A stretch of DNA of 64,000 bases from an uncultured bacterium (GTDB lineage: Bacteria; Margulisbacteria; WOR-1; CAVSGV01): the NCBI GenBank assembly GCA_963768305.1, contig CAVYHE010000003.1, positions 256,001-320,000 on the forward strand. The letters run 5' to 3'. Position numbers: made by a program. Shown one piece after another: positions 8,939-11,900 of this stretch (positions within the stretch are counted from its first letter, which is position 1; each line of letters starts with the position of its first letter).

Positions 8939-11900
8939 TGAAGTCCTGGGCGTTGTTAAAGCGTATGTCACGCGCGTTGGAGGCGGGCCATTTCCGACGG
9001 AGATTGAAGGCGAGATCGGCGATCTTTTGAGGGAAAAAGGGAAAGAATACGGGTCCACAACGGGAAGGCCGAGGCGCTGCGGCTGGTTCGACGGCGTCGT
9101 GATGAAGCACGCTTCCAGAGTGAACGGGCTGACTTCGCTGGCGATCACAAAGATCGATGTCCTTGATGACCTTGATTCCATCAATATTTGCAATGCCTAT
9201 GAATATGAAGGCAAGAAGATCGCGGAGTTTCCTTCCGATCTCTCAAAACTTGAAAAATGCACCCCTGTCTACGAGACACTTCCGGGCTGGAAACAGAGCC
9301 TTGCCGATGTAAAATCATATAAGGACATGCCAAAGAACGCGAAGAAGTACCTTGAAAGATTAGAGGAGATAGCGGGCGCCAAGATATCGATGATATCTAC
9401 CGGAGCCGAGCGCGGACAAATAATCAAGATCTAACATGGCCAATCGCAAAAGCATCGTTCTTCTATCCGGCGGGCTGGATTCAACCACTACATTATATTA
9501 TGCAAGATCAAAGGGCTATTCTTGCTACGCCCTGATATTTGATTACGGCCAGAGGCACAAAAAAGAGGTTAGGGTCGCCGTCAGGATCGCCAAAACAGCG
9601 AATGTCCCTTATCGAATTGTTAAGATCGACCTTCCGTGGAAAGGTTCTGCTCTCCTTGATGAAAAGGTCAAACTGCCGGCCGATCGGTCGATCAAAAATA
9701 TGTCAAAAGGAATTCCTTCGACTTACGTTCCTGGCAGGAATACGATATTTCTCAGCTTTGCGCTGTCATATGCGGAAGCGATCGGAGCAAAAACTATATT
9801 CATCGGTGCGAACGCGATCGACTTCAGCGGTTACCCTGATTGCCGGCCGAAATATTACAAAGCGTTCAGGAAAATGATAAAAGCAGGAGCCAGAGATTCA
9901 TCGATAAAGATACTAACTCCCTTGATAAAAATGACAAAATCGCAGATAATCAAACTCGGAATGAAGCTTGGCGCGCCGCTGAATAAGACTTGGTCATGCT
10001 ATAAAGGCGGCAAAATCCCATGCGGAGTATGCGACAGCTGTTTGATACGGAAGAGAGGATTTGAAGAACTAAAGTGAACGCATTAATATTGATCTGCATA
10101 TTTACCGGCCTCATTCATTTCACGGAGACGATAGCGTCGTCGATGAGGCTGGCGGGCGTGCGTACAAAAAACATAGCGACATCGCTTACTTTTGTGAACG
10201 CAACCCTCCTCATCTCAAGAATGTCGAATATGCTCCAGGCACCGATATTGGGCAGCATAGTTGATACGGCAATATTGAAACATGACACGGGAATGCTTTT
10301 GCATGAATTCCGCATCATTGTTTTCGCGGCATTCATCGGCAATCTTATCGGCGCGATGATGGTCCCGTTCTTCGTTTCAATTTTCACTGCGGCAATGCTG
10401 GAGTTTGAAAGGGTGGGATCCCTGCCGAGAGTGATGATATCAGCTTTTCATCCGAGGAATATGCTGGCAATGTCAAAGAAGTTCCGTCTGCCGTCGCGCA
10501 AGACATTAAAAGGCATTTCGATCCATGGAATGCCGCAGACATTTCTTTATCTTAATATCCTTATGGTTTCGATATACGCTATCGGCGTGCTTTCTTCACT
10601 CTATGCCGGCGCGAGGGTCCCCGAATACAGGATCACGGCAACCCAGCTGTCGGGAATAGTGAACGGGATAGCGACGATATTTTTGACGCTTCTGGTGGAT
10701 CCCACCTGCGCGCTGATAACCGATCAGGCGATAAAAGGCAAAAGGGACGAGAAAGACGTAAGGACCATGGTCTTCTACATCATCGCAGGCCGAGTTGTAG
10801 GCACATTGATGATATCCCAGCTGATATTCCTGCCGGCCTCGGATTATATAATGAACGTGACTTTGTTCATGAAACATATGTTCGGACAATAGGCCCGGAT
10901 CTTACATGAAAATCATTCACTTCAGAAAATCGAACTGCCGCAATATCGTACTGGTCCTCGGCAACTTTGACGGCGTACATAAAGGACATGCAAAGCTGAT
11001 AAGCCAAGCCATAAGCTATGCCGGGAAGAACAAGCTTCCTTGTTTCGCTATGACCTTTGATCCTCACCCTCAGGAAGTGGTGAACCCGGGTCGAGGTCTG
11101 TGCTTGCTAACGACCCTGCCGGAACGCATAGAACTTATGAGGGAACTCGGCCTGGACGGCGTGATCGTGAAGGAATTTAGCAGAAAAATGAGCCGGCTTT
11201 CGCCAGAAGCGTTCGTCAAAACCTTTCTTATCGATCAGCTGAAAGTCCGGAAAATATTCGTGGGCTATGATTTTGCTTTCGGAAGGGACAGGGCGGGCGG
11301 CGTTTCTATCTTGAGGAAAATGGGGCTGGAAGTCCACGCGGTTTCTCCTTACAAGGCCCACGGCCATCTTGTAAAAAGTTCCACGATACGGTCAATGATC
11401 GCTGACGGAAATCTATATGAAGCCATAAAGCTTCTCGGGCATCCTTATTCTCTGACGGGAAAAGTGGTCAAAGGAGCTGGGAGAGGGAAGGGGCTCGGGT
11501 TCCCGACTGCCAATATTGCTGTCGCGAAAGATAAATTGATCCCGAAACACGGGGTTTATTCGGGGATGATCAAGACCGCAAAGCTCATGCGGAAAGCGGC
11601 GATTTTTATAGGTTCGCGACCGACTTTCGGCAAAGAATCGTTCGCCATAGAAGCGCATATCCTGAATTTCCGCGGCAACTTAAGAGGTAAGACGATCAGG
11701 ATCGACATTCTGAAAAGGCTTCGTGATGAGATACATTTCAGCGATGTCGAAAAGCTGAAGGAGCAGATCAGGGAAGATGTGAATTCGATCCGCAAAAATA
11801 AAGCATAAGGGTTACTCTCTTACAACCATTTTACGACGGGCGGTTTTTTGGGCGGAGCGTCAGGAAACCCTCCCTTTGGATAACCAAGGAGGATCGGCCC

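Follow-up and report, generated by a model that had tools for sequence, protein, structure and literature searches.

Which protein moves lipid II across the membrane of a bacterium that builds peptidoglycan and in which MurJ is not found? The question is raised by an amj gene in the DNA analysed here, a stretch of 64,000 nucleotides (the window; positions 256001-320000, hence an offset of 256000) from contig CAVYHE010000003.1 (C3) of an uncultured bacterium of the class Saganbacteria (WOR-1), phylum Margulisbacteria. The genome is metagenome-assembled, 86% complete and spread over 16 contigs, with several genes split between frames. In Bacillus subtilis, Amj carries lipid II (undecaprenyl-pyrophosphoryl-MurNAc-pentapeptide-GlcNAc) across the cytoplasmic membrane, from its inner leaflet to its outer one. 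The identity of the lipid II flipper is still argued, the candidates being MurJ and Amj or, alternatively, the SEDS proteins, and efforts to target MurJ with antibiotics presuppose that it is universal. In the field amj passes for 'a unique Bacillus gene' (PMC13661225), and our literature search for Amj tied to the phylum Margulisbacteria found no paper.

The amj gene and its neighbours

The first-pass annotation had placed an Amj protein at this locus, with correct window coordinates, and the intact 272-residue open reading frame (ORF) found there matches the Amj profile PF10997 over positions 1-252 of 253 with 292.9 bits (E 2.4e-87; cut-off 27). A six-frame search with the Amj model returned 292.7 bits for the same gene, and genome-wide it is the only copy; the NCBIfam models gave no match to the ORF, and relatives in the phylum carry the NCBI name 'lipid II flippase Amj family protein'. 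In an alignment of 65 Amj sequences, whose representatives are 25-62% identical to the present protein, P210 and G243 (numbered on the present protein) are invariant, while R25, P57, P98, A178, P183, T188, G198, D209, D217 and P254 occur in at least 90% of the rows; all 12 of these residues are present at the listed positions. The protein has the size and six-helix membrane topology of the family, and B. subtilis Amj (YdaH; PF10997/DUF2837) shares with it the family, a similar size, six helices and the conserved residues. Judged by its sequence, the ORF encodes a complete and unremarkable Amj-family protein.

Table 1. Genes of the amj neighbourhood and of peptidoglycan synthesis, with positions counted along the window
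Feature	Positions	Strand	Basis and remarks
purA (adenylosuccinate synthetase)	8156..9434	+	PF00709; heads the purA-queC-amj-ribF cluster
queC (7-cyano-7-deazaguanine synthase)	9436..10077	+	PF06508, E 4.3e-76
amj (Amj-family protein, putative lipid II flippase)	10074..10892	+	272 aa; GTG start, TAG stop
ribF (FAD synthetase / riboflavin kinase)	10906..11808	+	PF06574 and PF01687; 13 nt downstream of amj
murB	31699..32611	-	FAD_binding_4 and MurB_C on overlapping ORFs 32279-32611 and 31699-32340
murC	32604..34040	-	Mur ligase N, M and C domains
murG (makes lipid II)	33994..35166	-	PF03033, PF04101; TIGR01133, E 2.0e-92
ftsW (SEDS polymerase, rival flippase candidate)	35129..36340	-	PF01098, E 1.2e-101
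murD	36213..37526	-	Mur_ligase_M, Mur_ligase_C and MurD_N domains
mraY (makes lipid I)	37526..38482	-	PF00953 and MraY_sig1; dcw cluster, 27 kb from amj

The gene is unlinked to cell-wall genes and adjoins queC and ribF (Table 1). For window positions 8100-11900, no sequencing run and no RNA data set was listed. The TGA stop of queC overlaps the GTG start of amj as GTGA, which suggests that the two genes are translationally coupled, and this overlap, together with a GC content of 47.7% against 47.4% for the genome, is consistent with a housekeeping operon. The purA reading frame at the head of the cluster is split into two overlapping frames, 8156-8941 (PF00709 positions 1-231) and 8817-9434 (PF00709 positions 230-416). 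Among 36 related loci, a queC ortholog ends no more than 200 nt upstream of amj in 14 and ribF starts no more than 150 nt downstream in 27, and purA lies upstream in many relatives; median identity to the 36 relatives is 62% for Amj, 70% for QueC and 48% for RibF. In Saganbacteria amj thus looks like a single-copy housekeeping gene of a purA-queC-amj-ribF cluster. The B. subtilis gene, by contrast, duplicates the function of murJ and responds to stress through the sigma factor SigM (PMC4990322). SigM induction and coexistence with MurJ are traits of the B. subtilis system rather than of the Amj family. The present gene is kept across the phylum; here it lies in a housekeeping cluster, coupled to queC, and no MurJ was found.

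The peptidoglycan genes named in the first-pass annotation are in place, with mraY, murD, ftsW, murG, murC and murB all in the window. Outside it, at contig positions C3:325983-327245, there is another SEDS gene, whose reading is spread over three frames. MurG was found in 141 of 146 genomes of the phylum (72/72 of high quality) and a class A penicillin-binding protein (PBP) in 62 of 65 genomes of the class (37/37 of high quality), and from MurG, the dcw genes and the class A PBP it follows that the lipid II substrate is made. Just upstream of the window, at contig positions C3:252890-254623, an MsbA-like ABC exporter is encoded that scores highest on lipid A exporter models; MlaD and MlaE are also present in the genome, and such an exporter is expected for a diderm.

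Distribution of Amj and the search for MurJ

Amj is present in 63 of the 65 class genomes, including all 37 of high quality, which range from 1.2 to 2.2 Mb; the two genomes that miss it are 86% and 51% complete. Across the phylum it was found in 135 of 146 genomes (92%), and in 70 of the 72 of high quality. The near-universal presence reported earlier for the class and the wide spread reported for the phylum therefore stand, with the frequencies revised upward from 58/64 and 82%. This distribution supports Amj as a vertically inherited core gene of the class and the phylum.

MurJ was sought in the same genomes. As the first-pass annotation had stated, the MurJ model PF03023 finds nothing in the genome under study, with no match at E<=10 while the controls rang in 13 of 14 cases, and an unfiltered hmmsearch with a lineage-built MurJ profile against its 4174 ORFs of at least 100 residues was likewise empty (best E 0.57). 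The first-pass annotation had itself cautioned that a threshold of 1e-10 could miss a very divergent MurJ, and PF03023 proved weaker than had been assumed: three controls, B. subtilis, Lactococcus lactis and Bacteroides thetaiotaomicron, give a match at E<=1e-5 and none at E<=1e-20. Within the class, PF03023 matched 3 of 65 genomes at E<=1e-10 (G010, G009 and G060), repeating the earlier count, and only the first two of these matches are strong. None of the 37 high-quality class genomes gave a match at E<=1e-20, and none at all was seen in the single-contig genomes G004 and G048, in keeping with the earlier report for two closed genomes. The lineage-built profile (A1) was also negative in the 37 high-quality genomes; its only matches were in G009 and in G010, whose own sequence is one of the rows from which the profile was built. 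The contig that carries murJ in G010 bears a second uvrC, 37-39% identical to those of congeners where the other uvrC of that genome reaches 64-66%; this foreign neighbour indicates that the match is probably contamination, which is put at 6% for that genome. The match in G009 is a truncated ORF, a contig-end fragment on a contig of 2.3 kb. Canonical MurJ was thus not found in the class beyond these cases, and because PF03023 is weak on divergent MurJs, this absence is softer evidence than the first-pass annotation took it to be.

Outside the phylum, a single-protein query retrieved 23 Amj-bearing genomes, and a strong MurJ is present in 9 of them. The remaining 14, all Bacteroidota, have no or only weak MurJ matches; on TIGR01695 they reach 41 bits at best, where a Flavobacteriaceae control scores 251. 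When 151 genomes of the Bacteroidota order in question were sampled, PF03023 reached E<=1e-20 in only 2 and Amj was found in only 2; PF03023 is blind to the MurJ of this order, and the 14 were dropped as candidate Amj-only lineages.

MOP-superfamily proteins and rival flippases

A substitute for MurJ might be sought among other members of the MOP superfamily. The genome encodes a single MOP protein, at C9:81545-82975, which scores 110.7 bits on the Polysacc_synt model PF01943 and 18.4 bits on the MurJ model TIGR01695 (cut-off 235.55). It adjoins a Wzy-like oligosaccharide repeat unit polymerase (TIGR04370, E 2.8e-35), with PMT_2 and Wzy_C-TPR proteins nearby, a Wzx/Wzy-type glycan cluster that bears out the earlier description of the sole MOP protein as Wzx-like and part of an O-antigen-type cluster. 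Of three further, unassigned membrane proteins of this genome (L029, L032 and L036), none matched the MOP profiles; L032 was set aside because its look-alikes in the Atlas are hypothetical proteins that give a faint PMT_2 signal, and L036 as a repeat-unit polymerase.

Across the class, PF01943 is found in 48 of 65 genomes (32 of 37 of high quality), in 0 to 3 copies. The weak MurJ matches, in all eight cases examined, score far higher on Polysacc_synt; the MOP loci, in all 13 examined, lie amid glycosyltransferase, sugar-nucleotide, polymerase or radical-SAM genes; and nine MOP proteins compared share 20-43% pairwise identity. Two genomes that are 100% (G011) and 99% (G012) complete contain no match to PF03023, PF01943, PF13440, PF14667 or PF01554, and in three others (G008, G020 and G061) a MATE-type protein is the only MOP member. 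These five high-quality genomes without a Wzx- or MurJ-type MOP protein all keep Amj, MurG and a class A PBP. A strong Polysacc_synt_C match in G008 was rejected as a transporter, as its length argues against this: it belongs to a 375-residue protein with an epimerase domain. A PDB sequence search with the two MOP types gave no match. The genome searches support the view that no conserved MOP protein able to replace MurJ is shared across the class.

The exception within the phylum is a marine family, Marinamargulisbacteria (f43), in which the Pfam model detected Amj in 0 of 6 genomes and a protein query in 0 of 5, and MurG was found in 6 of 6. Here a Polysacc_synt MOP protein of 420-450 residues is present in 4 of 5 genomes searched, with 54-69% mutual identity, and overlaps dapA in 3 of 3 loci whose upstream flank can be seen. 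A conserved, dapA-linked MOP protein in the family without Amj is what one would expect to see were Amj and a MOP flippase interchangeable, and since these bacteria make lipid II without Amj or a canonical MurJ, other solutions exist within the phylum. Some Wzx-type flippases (PF01943), a group that includes the monoderm-type MurJs YtgP and SaMurJ, can flip lipid II in Firmicutes (PMC13661225); in the class such proteins are patchy, divergent and located in glycan clusters, and only the Marinamargulisbacteria version is conserved and dapA-linked.

Since Amj is core and neither a canonical MurJ nor a conserved MOP flippase was detected, we read Amj as the probable principal flippase dedicated to lipid II in these bacteria, SEDS proteins apart. 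Its predicted activity is inferred from homology to the B. subtilis protein, which according to reviews (PMC4683061 and PMC4790310) can stand in for the MurJ of E. coli and, in a colicin M assay, sustains the flipping of lipid II. The single class A PBP would receive its lipid II through Amj, as probably would the SEDS-bPBP machines. A bolder version, in which Amj is ancestral and the only dedicated flippase of almost the whole of Margulisbacteria, the two genomes G011 and G012 having no MOP protein at all and the marine family having later swapped in its dapA-coupled MOP protein, is tentative, and we lean slightly against it. The wording 'sole dedicated flippase' of the first-pass annotation accordingly survives in part: the core status of Amj and the lack of a canonical MurJ or conserved MOP protein carry over, while 'sole' yields to 'principal', as SEDS proteins, the MsbA-like ABC exporter and, in genomes that have them, Wzx-like proteins each keep some probability as flippases.

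SEDS proteins are universally conserved, and FtsW and a second SEDS gene are present here; their established activity is glycan polymerisation, and some authors propose that they also flip lipid II. Were FtsW and RodA to perform the essential translocation, with Amj an accessory that, for instance, feeds the single class A PBP alone or relieves sequestration of undecaprenyl phosphate, the loss of MurJ would tell little about Amj. Englehart and Dworkin 2025 (PMC12096821) describe a B. subtilis murJ amj double mutant that grows with raised UppS and argue that SEDS proteins flip lipid II, and a review infers likewise (PMC12826051). That such a mutant is viable means that an organism can do without both proteins and that a lack of MurJ need not make Amj the flippase, and the class A PBP in all high-quality class genomes would fit an Amj that feeds this enzyme. 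We nevertheless consider the SEDS explanation rather unlikely. It leaves the retention of Amj unexplained: in all 37 high-quality genomes, small as they are, Amj is kept and is conserved about as well as its housekeeping neighbours, beyond what would be expected of a dispensable back-up. The conserved MOP protein in the dapA operon of the family without Amj also suggests that a dedicated flippase is still needed, and the flippase activity of SEDS proteins is disputed (PMC4683061). The SEDS explanation moreover overlaps with ours, and it does not exclude Amj as the main non-SEDS route.

That a divergent, Wzx-like Polysacc_synt protein comparable with YtgP is the real flippase, with Amj a back-up as in B. 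subtilis, is in our judgement distinctly improbable. The MurJs proven in monoderms are far removed in sequence from those of diderms (PMC13661225) and are weak on PF03023, the genome has one such MOP protein and 48 class genomes have at least one, and family assignment alone cannot exclude a Wzx-like protein as lipid II flippase. Against this possibility, which the first-pass annotation had also raised, stand the 5 of 37 high-quality genomes that lack a Wzx- or MurJ-type MOP protein, two of them without any MOP family match; the variable copy number, low identity and consistent placement in glycan clusters also argue against such a role. Very improbable, in turn, is an Amj that flips some other undecaprenyl-linked substrate while a promiscuous transporter such as the MsbA-like exporter moves lipid II. 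The question whether Amj is dedicated or promiscuous was raised in PMC4990322, which also reports that Wzk, an unrelated, ATP-driven and promiscuous ABC transporter, can replace MurJ in Helicobacter pylori and E. coli; here there is one MsbA-like exporter, close to the window, and amj stands apart from cell-wall genes. Lipid II is, in contrast, the sole activity assayed for any Amj (reviews PMC4683061 and PMC4790310), and the MsbA-like protein fits lipid A exporter models best, in a diderm with MlaD and MlaE. Least credible, we believe, is a MurJ that is present but escaped detection because it fell into assembly gaps or is extremely divergent, the whole pattern then being an artefact of metagenome assembly and model sensitivity. 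An incomplete genome, the two strong class matches and the limited reach of PF03023 would allow it; against it stand the empty searches of the high-quality class genomes and of this genome, the foreign look of the G010 contig, and the fact that random gene loss would not strike 63 of 65 genomes.

If the bolder version is right, MurJ would not be universal among peptidoglycan makers, and the flippase step would be a replaceable module, exchanged two or more times inside a single phylum. A phylum with core Amj, no detectable MurJ and some members free of MOP proteins amounts to a natural knock-out series, a pattern which would show that MurJ can be lost in nature and that Amj can be a primary rather than an emergency component. 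Two things limit the value of the series: the lineage is uncultured, and the reading is built on patterns of presence and absence alone. The first-pass annotation went too far in calling the lineage a natural test bed: the genome records of the relatives are metagenome- or single-cell-derived, which leaves heterologous tests only, and two concrete proteins offer themselves for complementation in E. coli, namely Amj from Saganbacteria and the dapA-linked MOP protein from Marinamargulisbacteria.

Predicted fold of Amj

Amj, which is about 270 residues long, is predicted to lie in the inner membrane with six helices. The AlphaFold2 model (pLDDT 96.6) is composed of six long helices, spanning residues 2-31, 34-68, 72-114, 155-181, 183-220 and 226-270. 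A crude hydropathy scan, in which six hydrophobic stretches were counted (among them approximately residues 3-21, 74-109, 158-176, 190-216 and 229-253), shows only weak hydrophobicity for the second helix and a loop at residues 108-152 that is rich in lysine and arginine. MurJ (MviN; PF03023/TIGR01695) has 14 helices where Amj has 6 and is unrelated to it in fold and family; solved MurJ structures gave no match to the Amj model. A Foldseek search of the PDB with the model returned nothing at E<=0.001, and the Amj sequence also found no match there. The best VIA-align Z scores were 7.5 for the membrane domains of ABC exporters and 7.3 for SbmA, with an rmsd of about 8 Å, and this likeness was discarded, since the tool itself rates scores of this size as noise when helical bundles are compared. 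An internal repeat of 3+3 helices was considered and is not established, the hhalign comparison of the N-terminal with the C-terminal half giving a local P of 8e-4 and a probability of 24%. Natural tandem Amj-Amj fusions, which occur in metagenomes, suggest that Amj may work as a dimer.

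The amj gene, its product and its surroundings

Amj, a putative lipid II flippase, is encoded at the position in the window (G000:C3:256001-320000) given by the first-pass annotation, as an intact open reading frame of 272 codons with a GTG start, and is the single Amj gene of the genome (G000). The Pfam Amj model (PF10997, "alternate to MurJ") matches it over profile positions 1-252 of 253 (E 2.4e-87, 292.9 bits), none of the NCBIfam models does, and its GC content is 47.7% against 47.4% for the genome. The family is small, with 572 clusters (50% identity) at E<=0.001 among 1.84 billion representatives. 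The AlphaFold2 model, based on a 65-sequence alignment (pLDDT 96.6, pTM 0.91), is composed of six long helices and additional short helices within a basic loop (residues 108-152). A solved relative was found neither by PDB sequence search nor by Foldseek of the predicted model, and the closest folds, the ABC-exporter membrane domains and SbmA, score Z 7.3-7.5 at an rmsd of about 8 Å, within the noise expected of helical bundles. All seven proteins of 558-612 aa examined from the family search hold two complete Amj domains, a natural tandem arrangement which fits a dimer as the possible working unit of Amj, as guessed in a passage of PMC4790310. Two further proteins outside the window join Amj to other domains, a BsuPI-type domain in P0256 and an M20/M28 peptidase domain in P0226.

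Among 38 related loci in public genomes (Candidatus Saganbacteria, candidate division WOR-1 and Candidatus Margulisiibacteriota), identity and synteny were counted over the 36 in which the Amj match covers at least 70% of its length. In 27/36, ribF begins no more than 150 nt beyond amj, and in 14/36 a queC ortholog stops no more than 200 nt ahead of it. This synteny, together with the conserved sequence identities, establishes amj as a stably inherited gene of a housekeeping cluster, and neither an island gene nor a stress module.

Overlapping two- or three-frame readings are seen in several housekeeping genes of the window, and rodA, outside the window, is likewise split. These look like assembly indel errors, not true pseudogenes, and amj is unaffected. 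A 366-aa frame antisense to purA is almost certainly a shadow frame and no gene. At the far end of the window, GC falls to 35-43% (vs 48%) in a stretch that probably represents a mobile or defence island and also bears a phage-integrase fragment, a papain-like protease and an FtsZ_C fragment.

Features in and around the window and related loci. Positions are in the window unless a contig or locus is named; identities are medians (ranges) to the G000 copy over 36 related loci.
Feature	Position	Strand	Identity	Remark
amj	10074-10892	+	62% (53-81%)
queC	directly upstream of amj		70% (61-73%)	stop codon overlaps amj start (GTGA)
ribF	downstream of amj		48% (41-64%)	start 13 nt past amj stop
purA	8156-9434, upstream of amj		69-75% (63-92%)	overlapping frames; PurA compared in two pieces
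Shadow frame	8093-9193	-
mraY, murD, ftsW, murG, murC, murB	21-28 kb from amj	opposite to amj		part of dcw cluster
murB	31699-32611			overlapping frames
Transketolase, N-terminal part	30440-31763			overlapping frames
DUF362 gene	3-975			overlapping frames
rodA	G000:C3:325983-327245			overlapping frames
MlaD / ABC ATPase / MlaE operon	22069-24389	-
Low-GC stretch	about 43500-64000
ORF without family	51467-55093			1209 aa; low-GC stretch
Type ISP restriction-modification enzyme	55142-57007	-		low-GC stretch
Large serine recombinase	62920 onwards			low-GC stretch
MOP protein of G000	C9:81545-82975			Polysacc_synt
dapA-linked MOP loci, family f43	L148:585-2706; L149:1105-3245; L150:1111-3229
Tandem Amj-Amj fusions	P0122-P0125, P0128, P0133, P0141			metagenomic, outside the window

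Amj and MurJ across the class

A six-frame search of G000 with the MurJ model PF03023 at E<=10 gave no match, with 13 of 14 control genomes positive; since G000 is 86% complete, this absence taken alone proves little. A Pfam scan of all 39 G000 ORFs of suitable form (at least 300 aa, at least eight crude hydrophobic segments) identified one protein of the MOP transporter superfamily, which adjoins an oligosaccharide repeat-unit polymerase, and an unfiltered hmmsearch with Wzx-type and lineage MurJ profiles, run over the full set of 4174 ORFs of 100 aa or more, found no other. Both earlier statements on this genome, that MurJ is not found and that its single MOP protein is Wzx-like and in a glycan context, are upheld.

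Amj is present in 63 of the 65 class genomes and in all 37 of high quality (at least 90% complete, at most 5% contaminated); the two without a match have completeness values of 86% and 51%. At E<=0.01, PF03023 matched 20/65 genomes, with strong scores confined to G010 (358.6 bits) and G009 (190.9 bits); the remaining matches are restricted to the C-terminal part of the profile at no more than 41 bits. G010 has 6% contamination, and its murJ adjoins a uvrC only 37-39% identical to the uvrC of congeners, while a second uvrC on a different contig is 64-66% identical to them; this divergence makes a foreign origin of the murJ contig most likely. The G009 match is a truncated ORF ending a 2.3-kb contig, which also bears an NhaA fragment. 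A MurJ profile built from the MurJ-like proteins of the phylum's other classes and that of G010 (alignment A1) matched in the class only G009 and, circularly, G010, its own row of the profile, and had no match in the 37 high-quality genomes. The claim that almost the whole class has Amj and lacks MurJ is therefore borne out, strong MurJ being confined to 2/65 genomes, one copy probably foreign and one a fragment.

Relatives' proteins already carry the automatic NCBI name "lipid II flippase Amj family protein", so the gene call was known; the phyletic pattern is new, and in it a pathway component that was already known appears in a variant at the level of the system. The literature search found no paper joining Amj with Margulisbacteria or Saganbacteria, no mention of DUF2837 / PF10997 and, Meeske 2015 being outside the searched set, no mention of MurJ-less, Amj-bearing bacteria except laboratory mutants. 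The words peptidoglycan, flippase and MurJ are absent from the main text of the Saganbacteria genome paper (PMC6349859).

Other candidates for lipid II transport

The first-pass annotation had raised the possibility that a Wzx-like MOP protein flips lipid II, which is an objection of real weight. Family labels cannot decide this, because PF03023 scores are weak even in the controls B. subtilis, L. lactis and B. thetaiotaomicron (positive at E<=1e-5, lost at E<=1e-20), and a passage of PMC13661225 describes monoderm MurJs as strongly divergent from diderm MurJ; distribution, conservation and gene context were used instead. All eight weak class MurJ matches examined score much higher on PF01943 than on PF03023, and all 13 class MOP loci examined (these eight, that of G000, and those of G004, G053, G043 and G048) lie amid glycan-building genes, with glycosyltransferases, sugar-nucleotide enzymes, NeuB, UDP-galactopyranose mutase, a Wzy-like polymerase or radical-SAM enzymes as neighbours. 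Pairwise identity among nine class MOP proteins is 20-43%. PF01943 occurs in 48/65 class genomes and 32/37 of high quality, in 0 to 3 copies; the other five (G008, G011, G012, G020, G061) have no real match even at E<=10 and none to PF13440. A PF14667 match in G008 was rejected as a 375-aa epimerase-domain protein. One MATE-type protein each is found in G008, G020 and G061, and G011 (100% complete) and G012 (99%) match none of the five MOP families, with Amj, MurG and a class A PBP encoded in all five genomes. Given these genomes lacking any Wzx- or MurJ-type MOP, and the divergence, patchiness and glycan context of the proteins elsewhere, no MOP protein can serve as a lipid II flippase shared across the class.

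SEDS proteins and ABC exporters bear instead on whether Amj acts alone. In B. subtilis, a mutant lacking both murJ and amj is reported to grow upon UppS overproduction, and passages of that study propose a model in which SEDS proteins flip the lipid II that they themselves consume, with MurJ and Amj supplying the class A PBPs (Englehart and Dworkin, PMC12096821); a review agrees that further transporters must exist (PMC12826051), and MurJ is replaceable by ABC transporters (PMC4990322). The lineage is compatible with such a division, in which Amj would feed the class A PBP, since G000 has FtsW and a second SEDS gene and exactly one class A PBP is present in 37/37 high-quality class genomes. 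An MsbA-like ABC exporter is encoded just upstream of the window and, with the Mla operon, fits a diderm envelope. The SEDS model and this exporter place exclusivity, the "sole" in the earlier reading of Amj as sole dedicated lipid II flippase, beyond the evidence; what stands is that, SEDS apart, Amj is the one dedicated candidate that is conserved, and we consider it moderately probable that Amj is the main dedicated lipid II flippase of this lineage. The suggestion of a natural test bed for Amj is doubtful, as only heterologous experiments are feasible.

Amj in the phylum and beyond

MurG is present in 141 of the 146 phylum genomes (72/72 of high quality) and Amj in 135 (70/72). Six of the 11 Amj-less genomes, up to 95% complete, belong to one family, f43, the sole family of the phylum without Amj, in which one locus is labelled Candidatus Marinamargulisbacteria. 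In this family Amj was matched neither by the Pfam model (0/6) nor by the G000 protein as query (0/5), MurJ searches gave only Wzx-like matches, and MurG is nonetheless present in 6/6. A Polysacc_synt protein of 420-450 aa (156-182 bits; mutual identity 54-69%) is encoded in four of the five f43 genomes searched, and the 5' end of its gene overlaps the 3' end of dapA in each of the three loci with a visible upstream side, with coaE or queF near and glycan genes absent. The dapA product makes the diaminopimelate precursor. This MOP protein is a candidate lipid II flippase, in a third kind of arrangement. Where Amj has been lost, the genomes hold a conserved MOP of housekeeping type, the reverse of the situation in the rest of the phylum; we read this as support for functional equivalence of the two, though it amounts to one evolutionary event. 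With this swap, the contamination analysis and the MOP-less genomes, the original observation is confirmed and strengthened; its interpretation is partly supported.

In family f50, Amj coexists with a MurJ-family protein (435-464 aa, 117-131 bits). In the three loci with a scanned neighbour (of L103-L107 and L109), the gene directly follows and overlaps a GT4 glycosyltransferase gene, and an ORF of equal size and position precedes it in the other three. The protein may flip a different glycolipid. Weak proteins matching the MurJ family alone (42-66 bits) are found in the phylum genomes G067, G068 and G069.

Outside the phylum, 23 Amj-bearing genomes (L116-L138) were retrieved with a Bacteroidota Amj as query. 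In fourteen of them, all Bacteroidota, neither PF03023 nor TIGR01695, models that barely detect MurJ in that order, reveals a canonical MurJ; a cultured Arcicella aquatica strain, Perlabentimonas gracilis and three closed Saccharicrinis chromosomes are among the fourteen. As PF03023 at E<=1e-20 matched only 2/151 genomes sampled from the same order (Amj, 2/151), Amj-only Bacteroidota are a lead and no result. Strong MurJ accompanies Amj in the other nine genomes, which include Acidobacteriota, an alphaproteobacterium, a Clostridium, a Polaromonas, and members of Flavobacteriaceae and Saprospiraceae.
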